Counted from the stretch's first letter, positions 8,683-23,163 are shown. The stretch: 23,489 nucleotides of DNA from an uncultured virus (IMG/VR IMGVR_UViG_2814123274_000001) (IMGVR_UViG_2814123274_000001), one strand, 5' to 3'. Notes: generated from the letters alone by a model not told the origin. Numbers and translations are program-made.

Positions 8683-8684
8683 GA

Positions 8685-9332: not shown

Positions 9333-9947
9333 TTAATTGATTTGAACCGCCCGCGGGAGCCGGATCACATAGCCCTCCGACGTCCGAACCACCTTGGCCG
9401 ATTGAATATCCGACCAGCCGTAGCGGTTGGCCGTGTAATTCCGGCAGGTAACGCCGGCCAGATCGTAGAGATCCGCCACCGAGGCCACCTCATACTTGGC
9501 GATGGCCGACTCCAGCTGATCCAGCACCAAATCGGCATCCCCCCGGGTTTCAAATATAATGTCGTCATACTCAAACCCGACCGCCGCTCTGGGCCGCCCA
9601 TACTCTCTCCGGTCGTCCCGCCGGTCATCGTAATACTTCTGGTAGGCAATTCTGGAACCACCGCTTTTCCTGCTGCCAATGCGTCCCGTGTCCCCGAACA
9701 GGACAATGCTGATCACATCGGCGATGGCGGCCTTGACGCCCGGAACGATGACGTCGGAAAGAATGGAGCTCTTGACGTTCTCCGCGTCATCCGGCGCAAA
9801 GATGCTGAGGAACCTCCGGGCCTCGCTTTTCTTTTTCGTTTTCGCCGCTCCGGTGACCACCTTATTCAGTTTTTTCTCTGTCTTTCCGGCCGCGGCGGCG
9901 TCCGATCTTTTCCGTGCGCTGTGGGAATTGTTGGGGTATTCCGCCAT
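9333..9947 (-). CDS. Conserved hypothetical phage protein
   Basis: AGGAGGAG RBS; C-terminal domain VADLYDLAG...YGW...GYVIRLP shared with 9963-10310. Confidence 0.8.
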   Translation of the reverse strand: MAEYPNNSHSARKRSDAAAAGKTEKKLNKVVTGAAKTKKKSEARRFLSIFAPDDAENVKSSILSDVIVPGVKAAIADVISIVLFGDTGRIGSRKSGGSRIAYQKYYDDRRDDRREYGRPRAAVGFEYDDIIFETRGDADLVLDQLESAIAKYEVASVADLYDLAGVTCRNYTANRYGWSDIQSAKVVRTSEGYVIRLPRAVQIN

Positions 9948-9962
9948 TGTGTCTCCTCCTTG

Positions 9963-10310
9963 TTACTTGAGAGGCGTCGCTCTCGGCAGCTCGATGGTGT
10001 ATCCGTTCCGGGTACAAACGATCTTTGCGCCCCGAAGCGACGTCCACCCGAATTTGCAGTTCTCATAAAGAGCCCGCACCCCGGCCAAATCATAGAAATC
10101 GGCCAGTGTGGCATGTCCGTATTTCGAGATAACCCAGCGCAGATTGTCAAGCACATCGTCCGCGCTTTTTCTGTTTTCAAACAGAACCTCCTGGCACTCG
10201 CGCCAATTCTGCCGCTTGGCAATCTCCTTGCCGTGCATAGCGCCAACAATCGCCTTCTGGGTCGCCATACTTCCCAGAACAACGCCGCCCACCACCAGCA
10301 AACCGTTCAT
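9963..10310 (-). CDS. Paralog of the C-terminal domain of 9333-9947, with N-terminal hydrophobic segment
   Basis: ATG at 10310 with AAAGGAG; LADFYDLAG...FGW...GYTIELPRA. Confidence 0.75.
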   Translation of the reverse strand: MNGLLVVGGVVLGSMATQKAIVGAMHGKEIAKRQNWRECQEVLFENRKSADDVLDNLRWVISKYGHATLADFYDLAGVRALYENCKFGWTSLRGAKIVCTRNGYTIELPRATPLK

Positions 10311-10388
10311 ATTTTCTCCTTTCCAAAAATGAAAAAAGGGAAAGCACCTGGTTTTAGGTACTCTCCCTTTGGCGAACCTCTTGCTCAA

Positions 10389-10670
10389 TTACTTTTCAGA
10401 GTCTTCCTCGTCAGAATCCTCCGCAGCGACTTCGGTGTACTCCGCGTCCACCACTTCGGCCTTAGCCTTCTCCGCAGTCTTGCGCTCAGCCAGCTTGGCG
10501 CCGACAAAGCCCCACAGCCTCCTGACCCCGCCAATCATGGCGTAAGCCAGGAAACCGCCGACAACTCCGGCTACCAGCGCACCGGCGCTGCCGCTCTCCT
10601 CAGCCTCTTCGACCTCCGTGATGTCTTCGAGTTCCTCGTTCTCCATCACTTTCGCGTTCATTTCTTCCAT
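10389..10670 (-). CDS. Acidic single-pass membrane protein
   Basis: ATG at 10670 with AAGGAGG; downstream of motif copy 10711-10740; followed by a terminator. Confidence 0.75.
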   Translation of the reverse strand: MEEMNAKVMENEELEDITEVEEAEESGSAGALVAGVVGGFLAYAMIGGVRRLWGFVGAKLAERKTAEKAKAEVVDAEYTEVAAEDSDEEDSEK

Positions 10671-10742
10671 CGTAAAGTCCTCCTTGTCATATAATGTTCC
10701 ATAGATGGTTCTCCATAATAGGAGATGCAATTTTTGCGGATG

Positions 10743-11507
10743 TCACCAGCCGATGTACCGTGGCGGGTTGCGGTGTCCGATCACCAGATAGGGGATGCCG
10801 TCCACCAGTTGAGAACTGAAATCGAACTCGACCCACCCCTTATCCACGTCCCAGCCAAGATTGTCACCAATGGCCGGATCACAGGAAGGGAGGCCGAGCT
10901 CTTCCAAAAAGTCGTTGACCGTGATCTTTACCTCGTCCCGCAGCCGCTTATTCAGTGTGTTCTCAACCCCGCGGAGGGTTTCATAATCTGATTTGAAACA
11001 GGCGTTGGTCAGCGGGTCAAAGCAGGGCGTCTCGCCCCGGCCGGTGGGGATGAACTTTCGCTCCGGCACCCCGGCCTGCTCCAGCTGTTCCTTCGCCACG
11101 GCGTCCCGAATGGCCTGCTCCTTCTTCGGCCCTACGACTTCCACCGCCTTATCCTTGTACTCCTTCAGAGCAGTCTCGGAAATGGTATAGGCCGTGACCA
11201 GGGCCGCGTTCCGCCGTGCGCTGATGGAGCTGGCCCCAATAATGCAGGCGGCGGAGCATACGCCGGTAACGGCGGCCGGAATATAACATTTCCAGGTGGT
11301 TTTGACGATCTCAGAGGTGGTCAGGCGTTTCCCGTCCTCAATCTCCCTGTCGTCCACCATACGAAGCGCCTTGGGGGTGGCCCTTACCGCCATAACGGCA
11401 GCCGCCGCCATCCCGGCAATGCCGATGCCTGTCAAAATGGCCGGGCTGTGTTTTCGCATGGTCTTTTGCAGTGATTTCAGCGTGTTTGCGATGGCCTGTT
11501 TGTTCAC
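10743..11507 (-). CDS. DUF6353-like phage protein (paralog 2)
   Basis: GTG at 11507 with GAGGAG RBS; KHSPAILTGIG...AVRATPKAL, YIPA, RRNAALVTAY, NDFLEELG, LGW. Confidence 0.75.
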   Translation of the reverse strand: MNKQAIANTLKSLQKTMRKHSPAILTGIGIAGMAAAAVMAVRATPKALRMVDDREIEDGKRLTTSEIVKTTWKCYIPAAVTGVCSAACIIGASSISARRNAALVTAYTISETALKEYKDKAVEVVGPKKEQAIRDAVAKEQLEQAGVPERKFIPTGRGETPCFDPLTNACFKSDYETLRGVENTLNKRLRDEVKITVNDFLEELGLPSCDPAIGDNLGWDVDKGWVEFDFSSQLVDGIPYLVIGHRNPPRYIGW

Positions 11508-11537
11508 AATGCCTTCTCCTCTCAAATATAATTTTGC

Positions 11538-11840
11538 TCAACGCTCGATCGCTTTGATGTCGTCGAGGAATTCCCATATGGTCTCTGCCGCAATCTTGAA
11601 AATCCGGTACTGGGCGTCTGTGTTGCATGTCTCGGAGTAAATCTCCAGCTTTGACGCGAACCGCTCCACGGTCTCCGAGGCCAGCGTCCACGGGTGGTCC
11701 CAGACCTGCTGCAACAGTTCCTCCAAGGCCCATCTGGAGAACGTAACTTCCTCGGCCTCATGCCGGGGCCAATCAGACCTTGGCGGGTCTTCAAACCCCT
11801 TCAAAACCGACATGAGAAACAGAATCGCCCGTTCATTCAT
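11538..11840 (-). CDS. Hypothetical protein (paralog family with 38-397 and 13553-13885)
   Basis: SRWALEELL...VERFASKL...IFKIAAE pattern; start at 11840 inferred. Confidence 0.7.
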   Translation of the reverse strand: MNERAILFLMSVLKGFEDPPRSDWPRHEAEEVTFSRWALEELLQQVWDHPWTLASETVERFASKLEIYSETCNTDAQYRIFKIAAETIWEFLDDIKAIER

Positions 11841-11874
11841 GGAAACCGGCCCCTGCAAAAGCAAAGAGCCCCGG

Positions 11875-12051
11875 TCAGGGCTCCTCGCTTCCAGATGTTC
11901 CATGCTCACGGGCGGCAAGCGCTTCGTTCACTTTTTCCTCGATGATCGCGTCCTGTTCCTTATCGTCCGCCCAGCTGGACAGCAATGTTCCAATCCCGCC
12001 GAGGGCCAGTCCGACCAGGGACAGCACCTTAAATATCGTTTTCTGGTTCAT
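11875..12051 (-). CDS. Small membrane protein (58 aa)
   Basis: AGGAGG RBS, downstream of motif copy 12080-12109. Confidence 0.7.
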   Translation of the reverse strand: MNQKTIFKVLSLVGLALGGIGTLLSSWADDKEQDAIIEEKVNEALAAREHGTSGSEEP

Positions 12052-12113
12052 AAACTCAAACCTCCTGTTTTTCATGGTTCTCCATAATAGGAGATGCTAT
12101 TTCTGCGGACTGG

Positions 12114-12944
12114 TCAGATCTCCATGTCCTCCCACTCTTCGTAAGTGACCGGCGGGAACGGGGCGTCGATGATCCAGCACTCCACCTCGCCGTTCAGCCC
12201 GTCGTCCACCACCGTCCTCTGATGGTCGAAGTCCACCCAGTAGAGCCCGTCCGAAACCATCCATCCGATCTTGTCCCCCTCCGGCGTCTTGCTGATGCCC
12301 AGAAAGTCATAAAAATCATTCAGCGTGATGAATCCGCCGCTAAGAGCAAAATTCCGGTTGAGATGGTATTCGGCCTGCAAGACTTGGCTGATCGTGGCCT
12401 GGAAATACCGGTCGGAAATGGCGTCGTAGAACAACCGCTCCTCCTCGTCGGCCTCCTCAAACCCCAGCGAGGTTGTGGCCACAAAGGTTCCGGCGTAAAT
12501 GGGGTGCTTTTCGCTCTGTTCTACGGCCAGCGCGGCCATCACCTTTCTGTGGGCCTCCTCGCCGTAGAGCTCTTTCACCTTCTGCTTGTAGCGGTTGAGC
12601 GAACGGCTCGCCAGGGCGTAGGCGCTGACCAGAGAGGCCTGCTGACGCCGGTTCAGGACATTTGCGCCGAAAATACACCCGATTGTAGCGATTCCCGTGA
12701 CTGCCGCGGGAACATAGCATCGCCAGCAAGCTCCTATCGTCTCCATTCGGGTCAAATTTCCGCCGTTTTCCACGTTTTTGGCCTCTTTTTCCCGCTCAAT
12801 GCACTTGAGCGCCTTGGGGGTGGCCCTTACCGCCAGGACCGCTGTGGCCACCACGCCGGCACTGCCGGCGCACGTCAAAATAGTTGGCGCCGCTTTTTGA
12901 AGCGCCTTTCCAGCCCTTTTGAACAGGGCGGGTTTTGCTTTCAC
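12114..12944 (-). CDS. DUF6353-like phage protein (paralog 3)
   Basis: APTILTCAG...AVRATPKAL, YVPA, RRQQASLVSAY, LNDFYDFLG, IGW; AAGGAGG RBS. Confidence 0.75.
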   Translation of the reverse strand: MKAKPALFKRAGKALQKAAPTILTCAGSAGVVATAVLAVRATPKALKCIEREKEAKNVENGGNLTRMETIGACWRCYVPAAVTGIATIGCIFGANVLNRRQQASLVSAYALASRSLNRYKQKVKELYGEEAHRKVMAALAVEQSEKHPIYAGTFVATTSLGFEEADEEERLFYDAISDRYFQATISQVLQAEYHLNRNFALSGGFITLNDFYDFLGISKTPEGDKIGWMVSDGLYWVDFDHQRTVVDDGLNGEVECWIIDAPFPPVTYEEWEDMEI

Positions 12945-12957
12945 GTCCGTACCCTCC

Positions 12958-13530
12958 TTAAATAGAATCGAAGAGATGATGCTTCCGGCAGATCTCGCAG
13001 AACTCGCCTCTCAGAGCGTTATGTACCTCCAAAATCACAGGAACCTCAGGCGGCTCCGGCGTCTGAATGGAATGTCCTAGCACCTCTTCCACGAAATCGA
13101 CAACCTTCCCGGCCGTACCCTCCAGAACATAGCCGGTATAGGCGGTGATGACCAGTTTTTCACGCTCGGTCAGCCCGGGTTTTCGGTGGAACCGGCGGTA
13201 TTTCTGATAAAGCTCCGGGATGCCATGCTCCTCGACCGACCGTTTCCAGTCCAGATGGTGCTTGTCCGCATCGAGGATCACCATGCCGTGCCTGACCGCC
13301 CGCACCAGCTCCGCCTCGCTTGCCCCGTACCAGCACATATCGGCAATCAGGTTGGAGTTTTTCCCCACCTCGATCCGATGCTGCTTGGGGGAACGGAACA
13401 CCGGCGCCGCCTGGCCGGGAACGGCATACTCCGCCCTGGGGTCGAACTTCCGCAGCGATTCAAGATTCTCCTCGCTCAGAAAGAGGTCGATACCCCGTTT
13501 GGTCAAAATATCAAGATAGGTCTTCGCCAT
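12958..13530 (-). CDS. Protein resembling an isolated non-catalytic segment of a phage DFDGD-type RNA polymerase, fused to a small C-terminal phage domain
   Basis: FDPRAEY...GKNSNLIADM..GASEAELVRAVRHGMVILDADKHHLDWKRS..HGI..LYQKY matches from memory a segment of large RNAP-like proteins of related phages; no DxDGD here. Confidence 0.5.
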   Translation of the reverse strand: MAKTYLDILTKRGIDLFLSEENLESLRKFDPRAEYAVPGQAAPVFRSPKQHRIEVGKNSNLIADMCWYGASEAELVRAVRHGMVILDADKHHLDWKRSVEEHGIPELYQKYRRFHRKPGLTEREKLVITAYTGYVLEGTAGKVVDFVEEVLGHSIQTPEPPEVPVILEVHNALRGEFCEICRKHHLFDSI

Positions 13531-13552
13531 GATGTTTTTCTCCTTTCAAATT

Positions 13553-13885
13553 TCAATCTCTGAAATATAATCCGTCCAGAATGGACTGGGCCGCGTCTCT
13601 GGCCACGGAAAAGGTAAAACCGGGATCTCCGGTGTCTCTTGCCGACGCGGACATTTTCTCCACGAACCGCGCCACTACGGCGGTGGGAGAGACTCCCTTC
13701 TCCCGGTCGATCTCCCGAAGCAGCTGCTCCAACGTGAACCTTTGCAGACCAAGCTCCTGGAAATAGGAATCATTTGCCGGGACCAGGCCCATGTTATACT
13801 CAATGTCGCCGATGAGGTCCTCGATAAAGTCGCCCATGACCACATCGGGATATCCACGTTCCGCTTTCATGGCGTCAGGGCTCAT
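13553..13885 (-). CDS. Hypothetical protein (paralog family with 38-397 and 11538-11840)
   Basis: QRFTLEQLL...VVARFVEKM...FSVARDAAQSILD. Confidence 0.65.
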   Translation of the reverse strand: MSPDAMKAERGYPDVVMGDFIEDLIGDIEYNMGLVPANDSYFQELGLQRFTLEQLLREIDREKGVSPTAVVARFVEKMSASARDTGDPGFTFSVARDAAQSILDGLYFRD

Positions 13886-14333
13886 AGGGAACCTGCTCCA
13901 CGTCTCCGCCCGGAACTGTCACCGAGCGCATGAGCATGCCGTTCTCCTCGTCGAAATAAATGGCGTCTGCCCGATGATCCCAGTCCTCAAACTGTTCCGA
14001 GATATTCTTCCTCCGGGACCGCCGCAGGGCAATCAGCTCCTCGGCAATGACGCGCCGCCATGCCCGTGCGATGGGCTTCCGGCTCTGGGCAAGGACGTTA
14101 TACAGGCCCGTCTCTGTGATGAACGTGACCTTTCTCCGCTGCCCGCCCACGATGGCCGGGAGCACCAGCTTCTCGTCGTCTTCACAGACGTTGGTCAGGT
14201 TCCAGACGTTGTTGTCCCCATAGCTCAGCAGCTCGGCCACGTCCGTGGCCTTGAACAAGGGCTCATCCAAATTCCCATACACCGGGAGGGTACGGTTCTT
14301 GAATTGGATACTGCCTACGATTTTGACTTCCAT
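13875..14333 (-). CDS. BRO-N domain protein (antirepressor-like DNA-binding)
   Basis: EPLFKATDVAELLSY...GGQRRKVTFITETGLYNVLAQSRKPIARAWRRVI is a typical BRO-N signature. Confidence 0.85.
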   Translation of the reverse strand: MEVKIVGSIQFKNRTLPVYGNLDEPLFKATDVAELLSYGDNNVWNLTNVCEDDEKLVLPAIVGGQRRKVTFITETGLYNVLAQSRKPIARAWRRVIAEELIALRRSRRKNISEQFEDWDHRADAIYFDEENGMLMRSVTVPGGDVEQVPYEP

Positions 14334-14334
14334 T

Positions 14335-14646
14335 TTATTTTCCTCCTTCTACAATAAGTTCCGGAATTTTGATAAAGAAACCATTCTTGTCTTTCCTTAA
14401 TTGCAGAACCGAATACTCATTATCGAAAAGTTCTGCGATTTCTTTATTGTCCGCATCCTGTAAATCACAGTTTTCGATGTAAAATAAACGGTTTGCTCTC
14501 ACAGAATCAAAACGATATAAATGATTCACAAGGTCGTTTTCCAGCTTTTTATAAAGGTCTTGAAAGTCAACCTCCTCGTGAATATAGAGGATAATACCCT
14601 GGTAATTCAGCTCTTCACAAAAATCATGGATGTAATATTTTCCCAT
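14335..14646 (-). CDS. AT-rich hypothetical protein
   Basis: ATG at 14646 with AAAGGAG; visibly lower GC than its neighbours. Confidence 0.7.
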   Translation of the reverse strand: MGKYYIHDFCEELNYQGIILYIHEEVDFQDLYKKLENDLVNHLYRFDSVRANRLFYIENCDLQDADNKEIAELFDNEYSVLQLRKDKNGFFIKIPELIVEGGK

Positions 14647-14690
14647 TATTTTCTCCTTTCTGAAATTATGTTTCTCCATAAAAGTAAAAA

Positions 14691-14764
14691 GAGAAAGTGC
14701 CGGACTCGAACCGGTGCCCTCCGGGCATTTCAGCCTGTTGCTCTACCATTGAGCTAACCTCCTC
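14691..14764 (-). tRNA. Degenerate tRNA-like RNA (Phe GAA-like loop; probable pseudo-tRNA)
   Basis: GAGGAGGT TA GCTC AATGGTA GAGC ... CCGG TTCGAGT CCGG C ACTTTCTC: canonical D and T arms, wobble-rich acceptor stem, irregular anticodon arm (GGC-TGAAAT-GCC), no CCA. Confidence 0.65.
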
Positions 14765-14828
14765 TCCATAATAGGAATTGCAAAATCTGCGGAAGAAAGG
14801 CAAAAGCCCCTGTCACGGGGCCTCCGCC

Positions 14829-15044
14829 TCAGAGTCCGACGCTTTTCAGTAATTTGTCAAGCTCTTCCTTTGTGAGTTCCAAATCCACATTCAACTCCAC
14901 ATGCATCTTGTCCTCCAGAACCGTTGTCCGCAGCCGGTTGAGCCGGATGGCAACATCATAGCCCAGCTTGTCGCGGACAAGCTTCTCTGCGAGTTTCGAT
15001 GCAATCACAGTCGTAAATTTTGATTCAAGTCTCATTTCGTCCAT
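14829..15044 (-). CDS. Conserved small hypothetical phage protein
   Basis: AAGGAGG/AAAGGAG RBS; lies between motif copy 15074-15103 and a terminator. Confidence 0.75.
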   Translation of the reverse strand: MDEMRLESKFTTVIASKLAEKLVRDKLGYDVAIRLNRLRTTVLEDKMHVELNVDLELTKEELDKLLKSVGL

Positions 15045-15140
15045 GCTCCTTTACCTCCTTATCGAGCATCGTTCTCCGTAATAGAACCTGCGAAATGAGC
15101 GCAAACAGAAAAGGAAAGAGCCCTTGTCCGGGCCCACCCC

Positions 15141-15290
15141 TCAGTAAATCCAATTTTTCTTCGCAAAGAACAGCGGAACAGCAATCGTTCCAAGAAGCGC
15201 CATCGCCGTTCCATCACTTCCCACATAGGCCGATAAGCCTCCGCAGACAAGTAATCCAACCGCGCACAGCTTGTTTTTCAACGTCTCCAT
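15141..15290 (-). CDS. Small two-TM membrane protein (49 aa)
   Basis: METLKNKLCAVGLL...PLFFAKKNWIY, downstream of motif copy 15323-15352. Confidence 0.7.
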   Translation of the reverse strand: METLKNKLCAVGLLVCGGLSAYVGSDGTAMALLGTIAVPLFFAKKNWIY

Positions 15291-15339
15291 AAACCGCAGC
15301 TCCCTTCCAAAATTAGTTGGTTTTCCATAAAGGGAGTTG

Positions 15340-15699
15340 TCAAATCGGCGTATGGTCAAAGACCGTCTCCCACGGCTGCTTTGGCAGAGGCTTCATTTTC
15401 AGCGCCCACATGATTTGCCGGATGGTCACCGTGGGGTAGAGGCCGTCCGTACCCTTCGTCGCCCTGCTGTCAAAGTATGCCCGGAATCCAGGGTGCAAAT
15501 ATAATGGGTCGGTGAGCCAGTCGTCCACTTCCGTCCAAAAGGTCGCCTTTGTCTCCAGGTCAAACCGCTGCTGAATCACCGCTAGGCCCCGCTCCTCCAC
15601 CAAGAACAGGGTGCAGGAGTTGTAGACCGGGTGGTCGCACCGATAACGCTGCCCATACATGGACAGATAAATCGGAGGTTTCTCAAAGTGATAGCGCAT
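15340..15699 (-). CDS. Conserved hypothetical phage protein
   Basis: ATG at 15699 with GGAGG RBS. Confidence 0.75.
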   Translation of the reverse strand: MRYHFEKPPIYLSMYGQRYRCDHPVYNSCTLFLVEERGLAVIQQRFDLETKATFWTEVDDWLTDPLYLHPGFRAYFDSRATKGTDGLYPTVTIRQIMWALKMKPLPKQPWETVFDHTPI

Positions 15700-15750
15700 G
15701 GTTTCCTCCAAATACAAAAGAAAGAGTCCCGGTCAGGACTCCTCCTCTTG

Positions 15751-15942
15751 CTATTTCAGAAATTTTTCGATGGGGTAACCTAATCGTTCCAAACAATCAA
15801 AGCACTGCATCGTATGATTTTTTATCACCAATTCTGCTTTTTCGTCCTTCAAAATGCCGATTTGGTTCAGCACATTACAGACGTCAAGCATGTTTGCGTG
15901 GTATTTGAACCTCAACGCCGCTACTTTTTTCGTAATATCCAT
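15751..15942 (-). CDS. Small hypothetical protein
   Basis: GAGGAGG RBS; bounded by motif copy 15967-15996 and a terminator. Confidence 0.7.
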   Translation of the reverse strand: MDITKKVAALRFKYHANMLDVCNVLNQIGILKDEKAELVIKNHTMQCFDCLERLGYPIEKFLK

Positions 15943-16057
15943 GACTGGTTCCTCCTCAAAATAGTTTCTCATAATACACTCTGCCATTTCTGCGCCCAAA
16001 GCAAATATAAAGAGGAAAAGCCCCTGTTACGTGACTTTTCCTCCGCGTTGATAATGC

Positions 16058-16399
16058 TCAGTCGTCGAACATCTTGCACGACGCCTTGCAGTGAGGGTAG
16101 GGTCCTCCGCAGGCCCTGCATCCGGCGGGCGGCATATCGTCCCGGAAGACCAGGTAGCCGTCGCCTCTTTCGTCCTGTACGAGCTCCATCGGATCTCCGC
16201 TCTCGTACTCATACTCCATTTCGTCAATCTCCCATCCGCACGATGGGCAGGCGTAAATATCGCAGCCACCTCTCGGATCTTCTTTCCGGTCCATAACCGC
16301 TCCGCACCGGTTGCAGATCGCGAACCCCCGGTTCAGGTAGTCCATCAATTCGGCTCCCTCCGGGATAATGACCTTGTTCCTCTTTTTACGCATTTGCAT
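16058..16399 (-). CDS. Cys-rich Zn-ribbon-like protein
   Basis: CNRC, CPSC, CRAC, CKASC motifs; AGGAGG RBS. Confidence 0.75.
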   Translation of the reverse strand: MQMRKKRNKVIIPEGAELMDYLNRGFAICNRCGAVMDRKEDPRGGCDIYACPSCGWEIDEMEYEYESGDPMELVQDERGDGYLVFRDDMPPAGCRACGGPYPHCKASCKMFDD

Positions 16400-16474
16400 T
16401 ACCTCCTAAGCAGTCCGGGGCCTTGCGGCTCCGGCGTTCTTGAGGTAAAGAGCGCTCTCTCCTCATAAAGCGCC

Positions 16475-16503
16475 TTGTAAATTTGGCGGAGTTGTGTTAG
16501 GAT
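16475..16503 (+). promoter_or_regulatory. Sigma-A-like promoter TTGTAA-17-TAGGAT (extended -10 TG), overlapping motif copy 16461-16490
   Basis: Consensus-like hexamers at 17-bp spacing upstream of the + strand gene. Confidence 0.55.
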
Positions 16504-16535
16504 GGAGCCAAAAAAAAGGGGGGGGGGATAAACCT

Positions 16536-16745
16536 ATGAAAACCTGTCCGCGCTGCGGCGATGATTTTGACCCGGATTCCGCCAGAAATAAAATCAACCG
16601 CATCTACGGCGAAGACATCTATGAAAACTACTATTATTCCGAGGAGGAAGAGGTCTGCGCCGAATGTGCCCTGCGGGAAATCAGCGCCGATTACGGAACC
16701 GGGGAGGAGCTTGCGGAGGATATGGGCTCCGGCTGGGACGATTAA
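16536..16745 (+). CDS. Small acidic Zn-finger-like protein, opposite orientation to the surrounding genes
   Basis: MKTCPRC...CAEC; poly-G tract in the RBS position; own promoter. Confidence 0.7.
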   Translation: MKTCPRCGDDFDPDSARNKINRIYGEDIYENYYYSEEEEVCAECALREISADYGTGEELAEDMGSGWDD

Positions 16746-16782
16746 AAGCAAGAGTCCTTGCCTGGACTCCTGCCTTGTTGAA

Positions 16783-16971
16783 TCACCCGTTTCTTTCCCG
16801 TCTCTTTTGATCGATGATTTTGAAGTTCCCAATCCACTTTTCCATCAGCGTAACAGGCCGCCTCACAACCGCCGCAATCTCTTCTGCATTTTTCCCTTCG
16901 TCATACAAACGGCGTGCGCGGCCAATGTCAATTATCAACATGGGGTTCAATTTTTCTTCTGTCATCTTCAT
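16783..16971 (-). CDS. Small helix-turn-helix-like protein
   Basis: ARRLYDEGKNAEEIAAVVRRPVTLMEKWI; GAGGAGG RBS. Confidence 0.6.
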   Translation of the reverse strand: MKMTEEKLNPMLIIDIGRARRLYDEGKNAEEIAAVVRRPVTLMEKWIGNFKIIDQKRRERNG

Positions 16972-17090
16972 AACAAAAACCTCCTCAAAAAATATCGGGT
17001 GTTCTCCATAAAGCGCCCTGAATAATCCGCGGATAAAACGAAGAGACTGTGCAGCCCGCACGGCCTCTTCATTTTTTTTGAGCCTGCCCG

Positions 17091-17531
17091 TTATTTTGCC
17101 GGCTTAAAGCGGCCAAACAGATTTCGGAATGTTGTGGACGAGTAGACGCCGGATTCCTCAAACTTGAATCCCCGTTTCATCCAGATTCCGTAGAATACCA
17201 ACGGCAATATCAGTTCCGCGGCCGCGACACCCGTCCGCACATACCGGTCGATCTTCTGCTCCCGAAGCTGACGCGCCTGATTTTCCTCCTCGCGGGTCCG
17301 GTCAGCATCCTTAGCGGCAAGTTCCTCCTCGCGCTGTCTGCTGTCCATTTCCCTCCGTTCAGATTTCTCCTCCACGTCAGCCCAAGCCTTGATCTCCTCG
17401 ATGCGGAGCTTATGCAGCGACACCAGATCCCGAATCGCGTCACCTCTCCGCTCATCCTCGACCGGCAAGGTCTTCAAGTTCGAGATCTCCGTTTCGATCA
17501 CCTCGTCCAACAAAGTTTTGATCTCTGCCAT
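17091..17531 (-). CDS. Coiled-coil protein with C-terminal TM segment
   Basis: AAAGGAG RBS; GVAAAELILPLVFYGIWMKRGFKFEE. Confidence 0.75.
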   Translation of the reverse strand: MAEIKTLLDEVIETEISNLKTLPVEDERRGDAIRDLVSLHKLRIEEIKAWADVEEKSERREMDSRQREEELAAKDADRTREEENQARQLREQKIDRYVRTGVAAAELILPLVFYGIWMKRGFKFEESGVYSSTTFRNLFGRFKPAK

Positions 17532-17580
17532 ATGCTTTATCTCCTTTCAAAATTTAGAGTTGGCTCCATAATAGCCGGTG

Positions 17581-17799
17581 TTATTCGTGCGGGATGAAGT
17601 CTTTGACTCTGACCCGGAACGCAACCCGCTTTTTACGGAGAATTGCGGATACGTCCGTATCCAGCTCCAAATATAAATGTGGCCCGTCCACCGGGTCTGA
17701 ATGGTCAACCCGTAAATCACCAACCGGACGGTCTTGAAACAGACGCATGCCAATCAAAATACCGATGCAAAGCGCTGCCATCACTGCGAAAATAACCAT
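17581..17799 (-). CDS. Small membrane-anchored protein
   Basis: GGAGGAG RBS; N-terminal TM then GDLRVDHSDPVDGPHLYLEL. Confidence 0.7.
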   Translation of the reverse strand: MVIFAVMAALCIGILIGMRLFQDRPVGDLRVDHSDPVDGPHLYLELDTDVSAILRKKRVAFRVRVKDFIPHE

Positions 17800-17921
17800 A
17801 AAAGCAACTCCTCCATTTGAACTGTTTTCTCAAATTTTCCTCCCGGGAATTTTTCAGGGTATCACTGTAACACGGTTTCCAGGCGGCTGCGTGCGGAAAA
17901 TGGAAAAAGCAAAGGGCCTGT

Positions 17922-18095
17922 TCAGCCCTTGCTTCTAGAGTTGAATTTCCATTTCAGCTCTTCTAGCTTTCTTGACGCCGTATTCCTGACCTCTGGAATG
18001 GACGCGAGTGCGACCGCCATCGTGACGGCGGGCACAATCACCTGTCCGATCCAAAGGCGCAGCTCCCGGCTTGCCTCAATCTGCTTGTAAGTCAT
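17922..18095 (-). CDS. 57-aa membrane protein MTYKQIEASRELRLWIGQVIVPAV... (absent from ORF track)
   Basis: GGAGGTGA RBS contributed by motif copy 18107-18136; followed by a terminator. Confidence 0.75.
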   Translation of the reverse strand: MTYKQIEASRELRLWIGQVIVPAVTMAVALASIPEVRNTASRKLEELKWKFNSRSKG

Positions 18096-18180
18096 AATGC
18101 TATCACCTCCATAAAGGCCGCTGCTGTTTCCGCGTAAATATAAAAGGAAAGAGCCCGCGTTTCCGCAGGCCCTTCGCCAA

Positions 18181-18423
18181 TCAGAATAAGGTCTTTCTCA
18201 ATTCGGTATGACTAAAAAGTTTGAAGTATCGACACGTCAGCGTGCTCGACTCAAATAAGTTTCCGTAATCTTCGGGTTTTACAACCACAATTCCGATACG
18301 ATGGTCATACTTGATTGTGTGGCCAGCTTTGTATAGGACTATGCATCGTTTCCCCTTATCTTTTCCTCGTGTGACTAAGCAAGTGTCTCCAATCTTCAAA
18401 TCGTCAAACTCTTGAATTGTCAT
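18181..18423 (-). CDS. KOW-motif / SH3-like small protein, AT-rich
   Basis: LKIGDTCLVTRGKDKGKRCIV resembles the uL24/NusG KOW motif. Confidence 0.6.
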   Translation of the reverse strand: MTIQEFDDLKIGDTCLVTRGKDKGKRCIVLYKAGHTIKYDHRIGIVVVKPEDYGNLFESSTLTCRYFKLFSHTELRKTLF

Positions 18424-18455
18424 AGAATTCGCCTCCTTTCCATAAAGGAGCCTGC

Positions 18456-18662
18456 CTATTCCGCGGATTTATCCTCATACACCACCCGTTTTCGGAGCGA
18501 ACTCCAGGGAACATACCGCTCCTTCCGGCAGACCGGGCACCAGAACTGGCTCGTTTTCCCGCCGATGTCTACCAGCTCACCAGAGTCGGCCTCCAGTTTA
18601 CTGCCGCAAATAGGGCAGTTGAAGCGGTAACACTGCCTGACCGCCACATCCACAATTCTCAA
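18456..18662 (-). CDS. Zn-ribbon protein
   Basis: TTG start at 18662 with AAGGAGG; CPIC...CPVC. Confidence 0.7.
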   Translation of the reverse strand: MRIVDVAVRQCYRFNCPICGSKLEADSGELVDIGGKTSQFWCPVCRKERYVPWSSLRKRVVYEDKSAE

Positions 18663-18664
18663 GC

Positions 18665-19087
18665 TCAGTCCCTCCTTTTGCTCAGCAGCCAGAAGAACCG
18701 TCTGTACGCGGCGTAATAGACGTCCCGGCAGCATGGAATATCATACTTCATCTTCAGCGCGTCATAGGAGAGCCCCTCCGTTACGCCCCGCAGCAGATAG
18801 GGGTAGAGGTCTGGGTCGGCCCCGATGGCCGCCTGCTCTACCATCTCCATACGCTCGGCGAAAAAGAGCCGGGACTGGGCGCACCGCTCCGTGGGGTCGC
18901 CCTTCATCTGGCCGCTCTTGACGAAGACCTGGAGATCGGCCGGACGCTTGCTCAGCCCGTCCAAAGAGCTGCGGGCCCTCTTCCAAATGGGGTATTGCAG
19001 GCAGAAGTGCTTCAGCTCATAGTAGCGGTGCTTGCCGATCCAGAATGGGTTCTTCTGGGACACCTCCGGGCGAATATCATGGGCCAT
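18665..19087 (-). CDS. Putative phage transcriptional regulator (RinA/ArpU-like)
   Basis: About 140 aa, GDPT motif, C-terminal HTH-like LSYDAL...RDVYYAAYRRFF. Confidence 0.5.
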   Translation of the reverse strand: MAHDIRPEVSQKNPFWIGKHRYYELKHFCLQYPIWKRARSSLDGLSKRPADLQVFVKSGQMKGDPTERCAQSRLFFAERMEMVEQAAIGADPDLYPYLLRGVTEGLSYDALKMKYDIPCCRDVYYAAYRRFFWLLSKRRD

Positions 19088-19338
19088 TATCGCCTCTCTC
19101 CTTTCCAAAAGTATCCGGTCTCCTCGTACAGCCGTTTTGGGGAGATGTAGAAATTGATCCTCCCATACCGGGAGTCCATCTCCTCAATGCTGGTCACCAA
19201 ATTGCCGCCGCGGGTGGCCTTGCCAATCGGCAGCCAGCCTGAGATAATGCCGGCTCTCACCCAGGACGCATCCTTTCCGTAGACTCTGGCGACCACAGCG
19301 ACCGGAACGGAGCCTGGATGAAATTCCTGTTCATTCAT
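19087..19338 (-). CDS. Excisionase-like / winged HTH DNA-binding protein
   Basis: VPVAVVARVYGKDASWVRAGIISGWLPIG...FYISP; AAAGGAGG RBS; upstream TTTACG-18-TAGAAT. Confidence 0.55.
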   Translation of the reverse strand: MNEQEFHPGSVPVAVVARVYGKDASWVRAGIISGWLPIGKATRGGNLVTSIEEMDSRYGRINFYISPKRLYEETGYFWKGERR

Positions 19339-19448
19339 CGGCGTCTACCTCCTTTCAACGGCTATTCTAAATTAGGGACCGCGTCTTCGTAAAAACAACC
19401 TCGGTGGAAAAAAGAGAAAGAGCCACCTGTTACGGCGGCTCCCGCTCT

Positions 19449-19643
19449 TTAGAATCTTCTTCCCGGATGCCAGATCATGAACAATTTCTTCGCTTTCTTC
19501 TTGAAACTGCTCCACCAGGCCGGTTCAAAGCTGGCGATGCACCATACGAAACCAGCAATTACACTGATCACATATACCACGCCGCACAGCTTGAGATAAC
19601 CGCCCCAGGTGATAGGCTTCTCGGTCCATTTCTGCTTGTTCAT
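19449..19643 (-). CDS. Small membrane protein (64 aa)
   Basis: AGGAGG RBS; KPITWGGYLKLCG then TM. Confidence 0.7.
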   Translation of the reverse strand: MNKQKWTEKPITWGGYLKLCGVVYVISVIAGFVWCIASFEPAWWSSFKKKAKKLFMIWHPGRRF

Positions 19644-19714
19644 AATATCTACCTCCTGATTTTGTTCTCCATAATAGGCGGTGCCGTTTGTGCGGAAAAG
19701 GGAGAGCCGCCGTA

Positions 19715-19903
19715 TCAGCGGCTCCTCCCGGCTTTTCGGAAGTCCACAAATATAATTTTGTCCGACTTCGGATGTGTCAGTTTCATCTTGACCATCTGAA
19801 ATTTCCTGTCCAGAACATTCGTCCACAGGGCAGCGCCCGCTGTTGATACCGCACCCACAATCACAAACGTTCCGATCGCGCTCAGAATTTTCCTGGTTTT
19901 CAC
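19715..19903 (-). CDS. Small membrane protein (62 aa)
   Basis: GTG at 19903, GGAGGTGA RBS from motif copy 19913-19942. Confidence 0.7.
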   Translation of the reverse strand: MKTRKILSAIGTFVIVGAVSTAGAALWTNVLDRKFQMVKMKLTHPKSDKIIFVDFRKAGRSR

Positions 19904-20058
19904 AACCGTCACCTCCATAAAGGGCGTTGCCGGAATTGCGGAGATTAACATTTTCGCAAAATACGCAAAAGCATTCATCGAATCGGTTTCCAAAGATGTG
20001 CAAAGCGACCTTGAAGCTGAGTCACGTCGCCGTCAACTACGAATCATAAACAACAATG

Positions 20059-20090
20059 AGAGGAAGCTCGGATAGGGCTTCCTCTTTTTT
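20059..20090 (+). terminator. Plus-strand intrinsic terminator
   Basis: AGAGGAAGCTC-GGATA-GGGCTTCCTCT then T-run. Confidence 0.65.
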
Positions 20091-20107
20091 ATAAAACGGG
20101 TCTTTAC

Positions 20108-20410
20108 TCAATCCTTAATCTCCTTTACCCGCCCTAATCTTTTAAGTTCATTCATGTGACGCTCCGCCACATCATCCCAGCAAAGCGTATTCCAGATAAA
20201 TAACCAAATTCCGTAAAACACTTTTAAACTTTCAACGCGCCACCATATGTTTATCACTTTTTCTGTAATTGGAGATTCGTCCATCCACCCAATGGGGGTG
20301 CTTTCTTCATCCAATTCAACATATCGAATCAATCGCAGACGCGTCATAATGTCACAGAGCCGGATTTGCTTTTCATTTAATGCCGCCATTTGAAAAGTTA
20401 TCTTTTTCAA
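20108..20410 (-). CDS. AT-rich hypothetical protein
   Basis: TTG start with GAAAGAGGGG RBS. Confidence 0.6.
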   Translation of the reverse strand: MKKITFQMAALNEKQIRLCDIMTRLRLIRYVELDEESTPIGWMDESPITEKVINIWWRVESLKVFYGIWLFIWNTLCWDDVAERHMNELKRLGRVKEIKD

Positions 20411-20446
20411 AGCGATGCCCCTCTTTCATCAAAATGAGAATAGAAA

Positions 20447-20554
20447 GAGAAGGAAATGGCTTCAGAGTCGTGCCCGCTTATTGCGTTGCCTACTCCGTAC
20501 CCGGCTTCGTAGCTTGCCGCTGGATTTCCACCAGCATCTATCCATTTTCTTCTC
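20447..20554 (-). ncRNA. Candidate structured non-coding RNA (about 110 nt)
   Basis: Closing stem GAGAAGAAAATGG / CCATTTCCTTCTC, internal hairpins, begins at motif copy 20552-20581. Confidence 0.5.
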
Positions 20555-20688
20555 CATAAAGGGATTTGCAAAATCTGCGGAAGACCTCAGAGCTCCGCTT
20601 TCTAACTTAGATTAGACCGGTCTATCTTAAGTTAAAGAGGGGGAGAGGGTAAAAGAAAGAGCCGCTGTAAGGGCGGCTCAATCCTTTG

Positions 20689-20925
20689 TCAAATATCCTT
20701 ACTCAGAAACACTTCGTTTCCACGTCTCCATACCTTGACCGAGCGCTTCGACCGCTTGATGGCCGCGGCCAGACAAGATCGGCAGACCGTTGGGGATTTG
20801 TAGCCGTCCTCGCCAAAATCCACTTTTACGATTTTCGCGTCTCCGTTTACAAATTCCTCAATCAAGTCTTGCAGCTTGTGATAGCCGCCCATCTATGGTA
20901 TCGCGTCAACCGGTATCAGTTTCAT
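20689..20925 (-). pseudogene. Small phage protein interrupted by an in-frame TAG at codon 11 (20893-20895); remainder is 20689-20892
   Basis: AAAGGAG RBS at ATG 20925: MKLIPVDAIP*MGGYHKLQDLIEEF; no RBS before the second ATG. Confidence 0.55.
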
Positions 20926-20945
20926 GATTACAAAACTCCTTTCGC

Positions 20946-21272
20946 TTATGGATACCTCCATAAAAGGAGCTGCGCTTTCTGCGAAAGCCACCGCAGCATG
21001 GTCATCTCGCAGGGATAGTCCTCAAACCCAATCGTCTCACAGGTAATCAGCCCCTCCAGCACGCCGATGATAACCTCCGCCTCATACTGCTTGTAAGGGA
21101 CCAGCAGCTCCGACAGTTCCCGGTGAACCGCCCCGCAGTGGACGCACCGAAACCGGCGCATAGGCACCCTGGCCGTCTCCCGCCCCTTCGTCCGTACCAG
21201 TCTCGGCACGCTGTCGTAGTATTTCAGCTCCCCGCCGCACTTAGGGCAGGTGGATTGGTCCCGCATCACCAT
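20946..21272 (-). CDS. DUF6431-like Zn-ribbon protein
   Basis: CPKCGGEL...RRFRCVHCGAVHREL...PYKQYEAEVI. Confidence 0.7.
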   Translation of the reverse strand: MVMRDQSTCPKCGGELKYYDSVPRLVRTKGRETARVPMRRFRCVHCGAVHRELSELLVPYKQYEAEVIIGVLEGLITCETIGFEDYPCEMTMLRWLSQKAQLLLWRYP

Positions 21273-21318
21273 AAGCCGCCCTCTATTCCAAGTTAAAAAA
21301 TATTGTATAGGAATATGC

Positions 21319-21364
21319 TTGACAATTCATACACTATCATATATGATTAGGACGGGCGGCGCAA
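21319..21364. promoter_or_regulatory. Two overlapping opposed sigma-A promoters: + TTGACA(21319)-17-TATGAT(21342); - TTGCGC(21364)-17-TATGAT(21341)
   Basis: Both -10 boxes are halves of the palindrome ATCATATATGAT. Confidence 0.7.
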
Positions 21365-21413
21365 GGGGCAAAAAAGAAAAGGAGCTGCTAAATCAGCAGC
21401 CCCTCTCCAAAGA

Positions 21414-21656
21414 TTACTTCTTTGCCATGGTAATCGACCATCGAACAACTTGATCGCTTGCGTTGTGTCCCCGTTGAATCAGCAATTCCCCCAGCTTACC
21501 TAAATCTCCGACTGCTAAATCGGTCGCGATATATGCGCCTTTCCGATTCTTACCGAAAATCGTATAAGTGACCGCTACACCAGCCATAAAGCAGGCAATG
21601 CCGATCATTTCATTTCTGCGGACTGCACAAACCTCTTTCAGCTTATCTTTGTTCAC
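21414..21656 (-). CDS. Small membrane protein
   Basis: GTG start with AAAGGGG RBS, downstream of motif copy 21682-21711. Confidence 0.6.
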   Translation of the reverse strand: MNKDKLKEVCAVRRNEMIGIACFMAGVAVTYTIFGKNRKGAYIATDLAVGDLGKLGELLIQRGHNASDQVVRWSITMAKK

Positions 21657-21721
21657 GATGATTCCCCTTTCAAAATTAGTCTTCCATAAAAGACGATGTT
21701 ATTTCAGCGAAAGGAGCCGCT

Positions 21722-21925
21722 ATGAAGAAACCGAAACATGTGAACCCCAAAATCTTTTTGCACAAAGTCTACACCGAAGAGGGCGGAGTAAAAGAGCATA
21801 ACAAAAATCAGCAGGCGGTTGGGGCGCTGAAACTCGCAGGAGCTGTCTTGATTGCGACCAAGCTCTTGCTGATGTTAGATAAAGTCGAGGGCCGCCCAAT
21901 CAAGGCACTCAAAGAGAGGCGGTGA
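21722..21925 (+). CDS. Hypothetical protein directly upstream of the integrase
   Basis: AAAGGAG RBS; stop overlaps or abuts the integrase start. Confidence 0.55.
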   Translation: MKKPKHVNPKIFLHKVYTEEGGVKEHNKNQQAVGALKLAGAVLIATKLLLMLDKVEGRPIKALKERR

Positions 21926-23163
21926 TCCGAATGCTAACCCAATGTCCAGAGTGCGAACTGCCGGTGAGCGACAAGGCAACCGCCTGTCCCCATTGCGGCT
22001 ACCCGCTGAAACCCTCTGAAAAACAGAAAAGACCCCGCAAATCCAACAAGCGTCGGCGACTGCCCAACGGCTTCGGTCAGATCAGCGAAATCAAAAACCG
22101 CAATTTAAGAAACCCCTTCCGGGCAATGGTAACAGTGGGGAAGACGCCGGACGGGAAACCAATCTGCAAACCGTTGAAACCGGAGTCCTACTTCGCCACC
22201 TATAACGACGCCTATGCCGCCCTGGTGGAATATAACAAGAACCCCTATGACCTGGAGCCGTCCATCACCATGCAGGAACTCTATGACAAATGGCTCCCGG
22301 AGTATGAGAAGACGGTGAAGAGCACCAAATCTGCCACCTCGGCCTGGGCCTACTGTTCCGGCGTTTATAAGATGCGGGTCATGGACATCCGTGCCCGCCA
22401 TGTAAAAGGATGCATGGAAGAGGGGGTGGCCGTCATCCGCGGCAAGGAACAGCACCCCACCGCCACCATGAAGAACCAGATCAAGTCCCTGTTCAACATG
22501 CTGCTGGACTACGCCCTGGAGTATGAGCTGGTGGACCGGAACTACTCCCGCACCTTCAACCTCACCGAAGAAACGGTCAAGGAGATCCAGTCGGTGAAAA
22601 AGGAGCATATCGCCTTCACCGACGAAGAGATGGACCTGCTCTGGGCCAATGCCAGCAGCAAGCAGGGCGTCGACATCCTGCTCATCCAATGTTATTCCGG
22701 TTGGCGTCCTCAGGAGCTCGGTTTACTGGAACTGAAAGATGTGGACTTGGAGAACTGGACCTTCCAGGGCGGCATGAAGACGGACGCCGGCGAGAACCGC
22801 GTCGTCCCCATCCACTCCCGCATTCAAGACCTAGTACTCCGAAAATATCAGGAGGCGGAGGCACTGGGCAGCCCCTATCTGCTCAACTGGGCCGACCCCA
22901 ATAACCGCAACCGGAAAAATCTCAAGCTGACTTATGCCCGGTATCAGAAAGCATTCGAGCGCATCCGGGACGAGCTGAAGCTGAACCCCAACCACCGCCC
23001 ACACGACGGCCGTACCCACTTTGTCACGATGGCCAAGCGCTACGGCGTGGACGAGTACGCCATCAAGTACATGGTGGGACACAAGATCTCCGACATAACG
23101 GAAAAAGTCTACACCCGCCGGGAGTTTGCCTGGCTCCGGGAAGAGATCGAGAAAATAAAATAG
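21922..23163 (+). CDS. int: Tyrosine recombinase / phage integrase with N-terminal Zn ribbon (start 21922 GTG or 21931 ATG)
   Basis: CPEC/CPHC; RRRLPNGFGQI arm-binding-like segment; catalytic R (SGWRPQEL), K (MKT), HDGR, VGH, VYT. Confidence 0.92.
   Translation: MIRMLTQCPECELPVSDKATACPHCGYPLKPSEKQKRPRKSNKRRRLPNGFGQISEIKNRNLRNPFRAMVTVGKTPDGKPICKPLKPESYFATYNDAYAALVEYNKNPYDLEPSITMQELYDKWLPEYEKTVKSTKSATSAWAYCSGVYKMRVMDIRARHVKGCMEEGVAVIRGKEQHPTATMKNQIKSLFNMLLDYALEYELVDRNYSRTFNLTEETVKEIQSVKKEHIAFTDEEMDLLWANASSKQGVDILLIQCYSGWRPQELGLLELKDVDLENWTFQGGMKTDAGENRVVPIHSRIQDLVLRKYQEAEALGSPYLLNWADPNNRNRKNLKLTYARYQKAFERIRDELKLNPNHRPHDGRTHFVTMAKRYGVDEYAIKYMVGHKISDITEKVYTRREFAWLREEIEKIK

Follow-up and report, generated by a model that had tools for sequence, protein, structure and literature searches.

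The 23,489-nt stretch of DNA from an uncultured virus (IMG/VR IMGVR_UViG_2814123274_000001), which is called here the window in its full length, raises the question of which enzyme transcribes its genes. The window represents the integrase-proximal arm of a prophage from a gut bacterium, an early-region array of small minus-strand genes, and along this array a motif with the pattern CGC-N8-CA-N7-TTAYG is repeated 16 times. We suggest that the motifs are probably the promoters of the phage's own polymerase, a single-chain two-barrel RNA polymerase (RNAP) that bears helix-turn-helix (HTH) motifs and belongs to the "1706 family" of YonO-like proteins (PHROG 4291). A first-pass annotation of the sequence had proposed that the motif defines a class of promoters recognised by a polymerase or activator encoded by the phage; this proposal gains support from the polymerase gene revealed in a near-identical virus record, from the restriction of the motif to prophages, and from the co-occurrence of motif and gene across the relatives.

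A pattern search returned 16 matches in the window, from 10714-10738 to 21685-21709 and all on the minus strand, while 100 dinucleotide-preserving shuffles of the window yielded 0.07 matches on average and at most 1. The co-oriented copies with fixed spacing that had been noticed before were thereby recovered at the same 16 coordinates, and the blocks, described as about one helical turn apart, start at positions 1, 12, and 21 of the motif, i.e., with spacings of 11 and 9 bp. The whole window is matched at 99.945% identity by a 60,733-bp IMG/VR record (G001), in which all 20 copies lie on the gene strand, the opposite strand having none: besides the 16 copies of the window, there is one at 36.2 kb, and there are three at 50.4-51.5 kb. 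When these 20 copies were used to build a weight matrix, they scored 26.8-43.2; the next forward site, a decayed copy at G001 50713, scored 16.0, and the best reverse site 7.2. The gap between 26.8 and 16.0 indicates that the motif copies form a discrete class.

Conservation in the 20-copy profile goes beyond the three blocks recognised at first, ranging from T(-2) to about position 29 and including T(-2) (18/20), A6 (17/20), C18 (17/20), G26 (18/20), and A27 (17/20). The resulting consensus is T-c-CGC-A-r-A-W-W-t-n-R-CA-n-c-k-C-C-Y-W-TTATG-G-A-G-a. A hairpin promoter of the type used by the N4 virion RNAP was considered and rejected: pairing of positions 14-18 with 25-29 (TCTCC...GGAGA) is possible in some copies and fails elsewhere, e.g., in the G001 copies at 12070, 12564, and 11529.

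The window itself contains no gene for a polymerase with the DFDGD signature. The first-pass annotation had advised a search for a DFDGD two-barrel RNAP in the rest of the genome, and such a gene was found in G001, where positions 52390-55110 encode a 906-aa protein with GADFDGDQ at residues 516-523. This protein matches PHROG 4291 ("RNA-dependent RNA polymerase") with 1198.6 bits over the full length (profile positions 5-907 of 909), without stops. In an alignment of 74 sequences, having 44-57% pairwise identity to the query, R471-x-P473 and D518/D520/D522 are invariant, and the R-x-P is located about 45 residues upstream of the DxDGD loop, as in two-barrel RNAPs. The R-x-P...DxDGD signature is listed for all two-barrel RNAPs in the accessible part of Ruprich-Robert and Thuriaux (2010, PMC2919709), where the counterpart residues of QDE-1 are R962, P964, and 1007-DYDGD-1011, and where phage 1706 is named among five YonO-like families. 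Weak matches to the Pfam family RdRP (PF05183) were obtained for 16 of 19 members of the family (E<=1), the best at 7.2e-5 and that of the G001 protein at 0.074, all below the curated cut-off; Koert et al. (10.1101/842583, available text) report an HHpred value of 95.7% to PF05183 for this protein family. Two HTH-like repeats occupy about residues 40-114 of the G001 polymerase, and a C-terminal HTH resembling sigma region 4 occupies residues 867-906. The protein is 55% identical to its counterpart in FP_oengus and 48-49% identical to those of Arthrobacter and Streptomyces phages. Homologues occur in 251 of 50,697 phage records, the family comprises 3763 cluster representatives at E<=0.001, and in many records it is annotated merely as a DNA-binding protein. 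PHROG scans of chosen G001 open reading frames (ORFs; 44 + 64) named no other RNA polymerase.

Several sequences associated with the polymerase deserve mention in their own right. A 190-aa ORF of the window (Table 1) is paralogous to the polymerase segment located just past the DFDGD loop and may encode a regulatory or decoy protein; its gene was encountered in four of the five related IMG/VR records that were inspected and marks the phage group even where the record lacks the polymerase end. Directly 3' of the polymerase gene, in 15 of 15 genomes from Streptomyces to Lactococcus phages, lies the gene of an 87-aa protein (MLTTxDNPYDPFTQ...GYHS...LARIARTSDQLS; G001 55129-55392), for which no Pfam family match was found; it may be an accessory or specificity subunit. 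The N-terminus of the polymerase (HYGVKRRSGRYPWGSG) has a short HYG(V/I)K...G motif, common to two other phage proteins, one of which is encoded beside the terminase gene (loci 12390-12470, 10816-11187, and 17200-17718 in the G001 segment L005). This motif matches Pfam DUF7211, weakly in the polymerase (E 0.015), and might be a common targeting or processing signal.

The motif is phage-borne and travels with the polymerase gene. In a complete 3.6-Mb genome whose polymerase is 93% identical (G002), 16 of 22 matches are located within one 63-kb span on a single strand, and the rest of the genome holds 6 matches, compared to 10 for a reversed control pattern. Three other host genomes also have matches in the prophage on one strand: 17 of 20 in G003 (one contig stretch), 22 of 27 in G005, and 9 of 18 in G004; the reversed pattern gave 8-15 matches per host genome in the four genomes. 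The first-pass annotation had named an equal frequency in the host genome or on both strands as evidence against a promoter class, and what was found is clustering in the prophages of four host genomes, on one strand. We then considered the association from both sides. Among 18 prophage loci found via the polymerase (99-45% identity), a forward copy of the motif is present 0.9-2.6 kb upstream of the polymerase gene in all 18 (905-935 bp in 14), with one reverse-strand match in total. Cultured strains that are candidate lysogens of a close relative include Muriventricola aceti H5_61 and Clostridiales bacterium CCNA10 (prophage at about 287-355 kb of AP018533). Starting from the motif, ten contigs were drawn from an exact-motif scan of IMG/VR (at least 150 stretches): the polymerase is present in full in six, among them all five contigs rated complete, three incomplete contigs have only a 100-aa paralogous fragment, and one 21-kb fragment has neither, against a background of 251 records with a homologue among 50,697 phage records. 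The tie to a phage-encoded polymerase suggested earlier is supported by co-occurrence of the motif with the polymerase gene in phages of Firmicutes and Actinobacteria.

FP_oengus has the same gene order as the G001 phage, and its first 50 kb contain 12 exact forward copies and no reverse ones, placed as in G001: in the early array, one in the middle of the genome, and one before the endonuclease-exonuclease-polymerase genes. More variation is seen in the other phages. Lactococcus phage 1706 has 10 forward and 0 reverse copies of CACAtgTTTTACAtacaC-TATAGTAG, i.e., CAC-N8-CA-N5-TATAGTAG; Arthrobacter phage Circum has 9 forward and 0 reverse copies of CGCGTAAATTACAnGGGCTATAATG in the 38 kb read; and in Streptomyces phage HotFries, 6 of 11 GAGACCCC sites have the form CGCAnGTTTTnCnnGCTTTATAGT-GAGACCCCTAC, i.e., CGCA-N14-TATAGT-like-GAGACCCC. 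The register common to FP_oengus, 1706, Circum, and HotFries has C-N-C at 1-3, a hexamer of the TAT type at 19-24, and a purine at 25, with letters changing in the distant relatives. CA at positions 12-13 is retained in all of them but HotFries, which usually keeps C at 12 only.

The position of the transcription start is central for deciding which enzyme may read the motif. The 5' end of the tRNA-like RNA, which has an 8-bp acceptor stem in each case, falls on motif position 28 in three cases (window, G002, and G005) and on position 26 in FP_oengus; it fixes the latest possible start of copy 14, since a later start would cut the 5' strand of the acceptor stem. Among 65 exact copies from four genomes, 54 are followed by a Shine-Dalgarno sequence (SD) and an ORF within 140 nt; after dropping three artefacts (one ambiguous upstream ATG and two frames across tRNA-like genes), 51 were retained, and in 17 of these the SD core begins at motif positions 25-30. 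One of the window copies, 18110-18134, has its SD at 25-29 and follows directly behind a terminator hairpin of -24 kcal/mol. These RNA 5' ends and SD positions would be lost by a start 7 nt past position 24, and therefore +1 is placed at G25, give or take one. We infer, with this indirect support, that transcription starts at about G25 of the motif and not 7 nt past a -10 box; the geometry of the copies appears incompatible with a sigma-70 start. The start near ATGGAG supposed in the first-pass annotation agrees with the tRNA-like RNA 5' ends of four phages and with the SDs at 25-30.

With +1 at G25, CGC occupies -24 to -22, CA occupies -13/-12, and TTAT occupies -4 to -1. The earlier statement that the copies have no TTGACA/TATAAT match holds for the -35 element: no TTGACA-like hexamer is present 16-18 bp upstream, no site of the consensus scan coincides with a window copy, and the sole conserved features of the 20-copy profile in columns -4 to +2 are T(-2) and CGC. 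For the -10 element, it has to be qualified, as positions 19-24 read TATTAY in 7 of 16 window copies, corresponding to TATAAT in five or four letters of six. YTTTAT, which lacks A as the second letter of the hexamer, is found in the other 9 window copies; in FP_oengus, CTTTAT occurs in 10 of the 12 copies, CCTTAT in one, and TTTTAT in one.

These data suggest the following mechanism. The polymerase would recognise DNA by itself, through two HTH motifs near the N-terminus and a C-terminal HTH similar to sigma region 4, which would read the duplex boxes CGC (-24 to -22) and CA (-13/-12), located one helical turn apart. The T-rich TTAT (-4 to -1) would then melt, and RNA would begin at G25 (+1) of TTATG-GAG. 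We infer that the polymerase itself, rather than a partner, reads the boxes. Each window copy would drive a short unit composed of one or a few small early-region genes, the tRNA-like RNA, or a non-coding RNA, many units being closed by an intrinsic terminator. A further conserved copy heads the operon small ORF - exonuclease - polymerase; with a copy ahead of this operon, the enzyme would amplify its own synthesis once the first molecule is made.

A number of observations weigh against the assignment of the motifs to the phage polymerase. In some relatives, positions 19-24 represent a good sigma-70 -10 hexamer, TATAAT (Circum) or TATAGT-like (1706, HotFries). The polymerase operon is itself located behind a copy and a terminator, and scanning of G001 48000-57800 revealed no forward sigma-70-like site above 9/12 around it; this is a difficulty with regard to the first polymerase molecule, which might arise by read-through from upstream co-oriented genes, by weak recognition of the hexamer by the host, or from packaged enzyme. 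No motif copy occurs in the 5.6 kb of G001 after the polymerase gene, and YonO, according to the available text of PMC5467207, drives late genes in SPbeta. Profile comparison of the family with YonO (hhalign) found no similarity (probability 0.1-0.2%), and searches of PDB sequences with the single protein and two profiles gave HTH matches only, plus a weak match to 8h2n, the P23-45 tape-measure RNAP (E 0.69). The RNA polymerase activity of the 906-aa protein is presumed from its sequence, and the 87-aa protein encoded next to it, not the HTH domains, could act as the specificity factor. Assembled contigs of three gut metatranscriptome runs and three other runs, compared over 9800-22300, bridge several copies and cannot show starts; they come from related phage variants.

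Some of these observations would be expected if the copies were activator-dependent promoters of the host RNAP, similar to the MotA-dependent promoters of T4, with positions 19-24 as the sigma-A -10 element, CGC and CA at about -30/-19 bound by a phage protein that replaces the -35 contact, and a start about 7 nt past position 24. Such a scheme is possible in terms of geometry. The hexamers of Circum, 1706, and HotFries, together with TATTAY in 7 of 16 window copies, fit this scheme; the position of the polymerase operon behind a copy is simply explained if the host enzyme reads the motif; and the conserved protein has HTH domains, its usual annotation in many records being only that of a DNA-binding protein. 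Nevertheless, we consider this explanation unlikely. With a start near position 31, the tRNA-like RNAs of four phages would lose 3-5 nt of their 8-bp acceptor stems, and 17 of 51 downstream genes would lose their sole SD. The second letter of the hexamer is T instead of A in 9 of 16 window copies and in 11 of 12 FP_oengus copies, and conservation continues to positions 25-29, in HotFries to 35 (GAGACCCCTAC), which is unusual for sigma-70 promoters. In addition, the geometry stays the same across hosts of two phyla whose sigma-A preferences differ, and the conserved protein has an invariant ADFDGD catalytic signature. Much less probable still, in our opinion, is that the repeats serve mainly as boundaries of recombination modules or as an RNA-level signal for processing or translation, and not as initiation sites. 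The copies do lie between small, variable genes whose content differs among the relatives, in one metatranscriptome contig (run X2) window positions 14334-14726 are swapped for 66 other letters, and GGAG also serves as the SD in some copies; phages of the T4 type shuffle genes via cassettes composed of a promoter and a stem-loop. However, the block spacing of 11 and 9 bp is that of protein-DNA contacts, copies stand before non-coding RNAs and after terminators, where a new start is needed, and the 14-18 / 25-29 pairing is not kept across copies. At a distance of 30-70 nt, most copies are too remote from the start codon to act as an SD, and use in recombination is compatible with promoter function.

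A bolder extension of the phage-polymerase reading, which we regard as doubtful, is a sigma-free system of one polypeptide in which a two-barrel polymerase of about 900 aa, equipped with HTH readers, reads a 30-bp duplex promoter, with the register kept from Actinobacteria to Firmicutes phages. As this promoter also precedes the polymerase's own operon in 18 of 18 relatives, an autocatalytic loop would form the bistable core of the choice between lysis and lysogeny, and no early unit would be expressed before the first polymerase molecule appears. This extension also holds that TTTATG is shared with YonO, and, if it is true, this sharing would supply YonO's long-missing promoter.

The layout of the motif is reminiscent of T7-type promoters, which are contiguous elements of 23-30 bp with upstream specificity boxes, a TATA-like melting region at -4 to -1, and a purine-rich +1 to +5, and which occur in many copies on one strand, often behind terminators. 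The core CACTATAG of phage 1706 resembles them as well. The T7-type polymerase fold is unrelated, being of the right-hand Pol I type versus the two-barrel type considered here. Two-barrel (cellular-type) RNAPs normally need separate factors to find promoters.

The nearest comparison is offered by YonO of SPbeta, which is also a temperate phage of Firmicutes; its single-chain two-barrel enzyme likewise transcribes phage genes, and does so from a start site of its own (PMC5467207, accessible text). It differs in that no profile similarity is detectable, YonO belonging to a different one of the five YonO-like families (PMC2919709, accessible part), and in that one late operon with one mapped start is described, while 16-20 copies are found here, mostly in the early-region array. 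In the text available to us, Forrest et al. (2017, PMC5467207) state the sequence of the YonO promoter (P_YonO), with its one mapped start (genome position 2225998), as still to be determined. We found that TCATTTATGA(A/G)GG, which resembles the YWTTATG-GAG core of our motif, occurs just twice in 40 kb of SPbeta (SPBc2 record 40000-80000). The two copies, 157 bp apart, are located in the gap between yonN and yonK on the strand of the late genes (minus strand, locus 20447 and 20604). One of them falls between the P_YonO primer-extension primers (PMC5467207 supplement). The element (TCATTTATG-AGGG) may represent the YonO promoter core, a candidate proposed from sequence likeness; if the mapped YonO start corresponds to that G, a TTTATG start element would be common to two YonO-like families.

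The G001 polymerase belongs to the same family as the protein of the 1706/FP_oengus/actinophage supercluster, which, as described by Koert et al. (10.1101/842583, available text), unites Streptomyces, Arthrobacter, Gordonia, and Rhodococcus phages with the Lactococcus 1706-like phages and FP_oengus, and in which an HTH-flanked DxDGD protein is one of the few genes conserved throughout. The accessible parts of this paper and of PMC2919709 describe the protein alone, and the word "promoter" is absent from the available text of Koert et al. A promoter description for this polymerase family was not found in the literature (including PMC13432834), subscription journals and bioRxiv supplements (Figure S1 of Koert et al.) being outside the coverage. 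The promoter-like motif and its conserved register across the 1706/FP_oengus/actinophage group were derived in the present work.

The best-characterised example of the same logic is Thermus phage P23-45, whose single-chain two-barrel RNAPs gp96 and gp64 have AT-rich and GC-rich promoter motifs mapped by cappable-seq, each enzyme with its own motif upstream of mapped starts and only in enzyme-carrying relatives (PMC10770324, available text). However, the sequences are unrelated to ours, save for the weak match of the catalytic stretch mentioned above, and the motifs differ; moreover, P23-45 is lytic, injects one enzyme as part of the tape measure, and has no built-in HTH domains reported in the accessible part of the same paper. 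With the phages phiKZ and AR9, the similarity concerns the start: the late promoters of the phiKZ nvRNAP are 5'-T(-3)ATG(+1)-3' and those of AR9 are A(-11)ACA-N6-TA/G(+1) (PMC7598289, available text), so that two-barrel polymerases start at the G of a TATG overlapping the start, and the upstream ACA of AR9 is comparable to our CA box. According to the same text, these enzymes consist of several subunits, AR9 depends on uracil and reads the template strand, and phiKZ is without a conserved upstream box; our motif, compared to them, is 30 bp long with two upstream boxes of the duplex type at -24 and -13.

How the minimal single-chain YonO-like enzymes find their promoters was left open in 2017 (PMC5467207, accessible text), and no answer was found in the literature searched. 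A defined promoter together with a 906-aa enzyme makes factor-free promoter recognition directly testable with one protein and one 30-bp DNA. The polymerase and the motif, which is kept in the examined phages of two host phyla, would explain early expression in many gut, dairy, and soil phages, and the pair could serve as a compact orthogonal expression system for Gram-positive bacteria.

Table 1. Motif copies and neighbouring elements of the window.
Feature	Coordinates	Strand	Remarks
Motif copy 1 (CGCTGAAATAACATCGTCTTTTATG)	21685..21709	-	First unit beside divergent integrase gene; GTG start 29 nt past G25
Motif copy 2	20959..20983	-	Within 3' end of DUF6431 ORF (20946-21272)
Motif copy 3	20555..20579	-	Followed by ~145 nt without SD or ORF (candidate non-coding RNA)
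Motif copy 4	19916..19940	-	SD is GGAGG at motif positions 25-29; GTG 13 nt past G25
Motif copy 5	19670..19694	-	Immediately behind hairpin 19729-19700 + TTTT
Motif copy 6	18441..18465	-	Starts 10 nt within upstream ORF; SD at positions 30-34
Motif copy 7	18110..18134	-	Behind hairpin 18183-18141; SD GGAGG at 25-29; ATG 15 nt past G25
Motif copy 8	17567..17591	-	Starts 11 nt within upstream ORF
Motif copy 9	17007..17031	-	Behind hairpin 17075-17035
Motif copy 10	16464..16488	-	C-run/T-run tract upstream; leader 71 nt
Motif copy 11	15970..15994	-	Behind hairpin 16025-16011
Motif copy 12	15326..15350	-	Starts 11 nt within upstream ORF
Motif copy 13	15077..15101	-	Sole TTACG copy; behind hairpin 15135-15118
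Motif copy 14	14767..14791	-	Behind hairpin 14830-14797; tRNA-like RNA starts 3 nt past G25
Motif copy 15	12083..12107	-	DUF6353 gene stop 6 nt upstream
Motif copy 16	10714..10738	-	DUF6353 gene stop 4 nt upstream
tRNA-like RNA	14690..14764	-	Rfam tRNA 43.2 bits; 8-bp acceptor stem, 8-nt anticodon loop
Candidate non-coding RNA	20412..20555	-	Starts at G25 of copy 3
190-aa ORF, paralogous polymerase fragment	12958..13530	-	Residues 23-114 45% identical to polymerase 541-632
Tyrosine integrase	21922..23163	+	Divergent from motif-bearing array; marks prophage end
Three paralogous DUF6353 genes (PHROG 2152)	7717-8688, 10743-11507, 12114-12944	-	

The arrangement of the copies relative to the neighbouring genes (Table 1) corresponds to what had been described in the first-pass annotation. 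Copies said to lie often right behind a terminator do so in 6 of 16 cases, with a strong hairpin and a T run (-18 to -28 kcal/mol) directly before the motif; of the four said to overlap the 3' end of the upstream ORF, three start 10-11 nt inside it and the fourth (20959-20983) lies within the last 38 nt of the DUF6431 ORF; and the GGAG tail doubles as the ribosome-binding site in some copies, with GGAGG at motif positions 25-29. Where the start codon is closest to G25 among the window copies, the distance is 13, 15, and 18 nt. One copy precedes the tRNA-like RNA and another the stretch without an ORF. Besides the three DUF6353 paralogues, the window encodes a cell-wall hydrolase, a 1400-aa primase-polymerase, and a single-strand annealing protein. 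FP_oengus likewise has three DUF6353 paralogues, and two of those in the window end 4-6 nt before a motif copy.

The array varies between close relatives. The segment 14334-14726 that is swapped in the contig of run X2 spans a 103-aa gene and part of the tRNA-like gene, which represents variation of gene content within the motif-bounded array. Upstream of copy 16464-16488, and adjoining it, lies a hypervariable homopolymer tract at about 16495-16520 (minus strand), in which a run of about 10 C precedes one of about 8 T. Its length is not the same in the window, in G001, and in the sequencing runs, the variants including 2 letters missing at 16509 and GGG inserted at 16517. The sole long opposite-strand gene inside the phage (G001 39630-40865, minus strand) was considered as a possible repressor gene, which was ruled out, as it encodes an IS110-family transposase; an insertion sequence has thus entered the phage genome.

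The word TGATATTT is also strand-biased (31:2 in G001 and 33:0 in FP_oengus). It was rejected as a second promoter class: many occurrences are intragenic (Asp-Ile-Leu/Phe codons), and the rest stand directly before an SD, about a dozen of them as GATATTTTGAAAAGGAGA (e.g., G001 42713, 43027, 45079, and 46450). The word probably reflects a translation-initiation context and codon usage rather than a promoter.

The candidate non-coding RNA (20412-20555) has a purine-rich 5' end that can pair with its pyrimidine-rich 3' end, and its conservation extends to G002 and G005 and, in a looser form, to FP_oengus. Its identity as an AdoCbl riboswitch was rejected: the full-length Rfam match reaches 20.2 and 18 bits versus a threshold of 50, and none was obtained in FP_oengus. 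In the tRNA-like RNA, ARAGORN reads the 8-nt anticodon loop as the four-base anticodon GAAA. Counterparts of this RNA are located at L032 8122-8194, L031 (reverse complement) 10019-10092, and L006 2935-3006. The feature is kept in three related prophages, and the loop of the FP_oengus RNA has 6 nt. A tRNA of the frameshift type or a decoy is conceivable.

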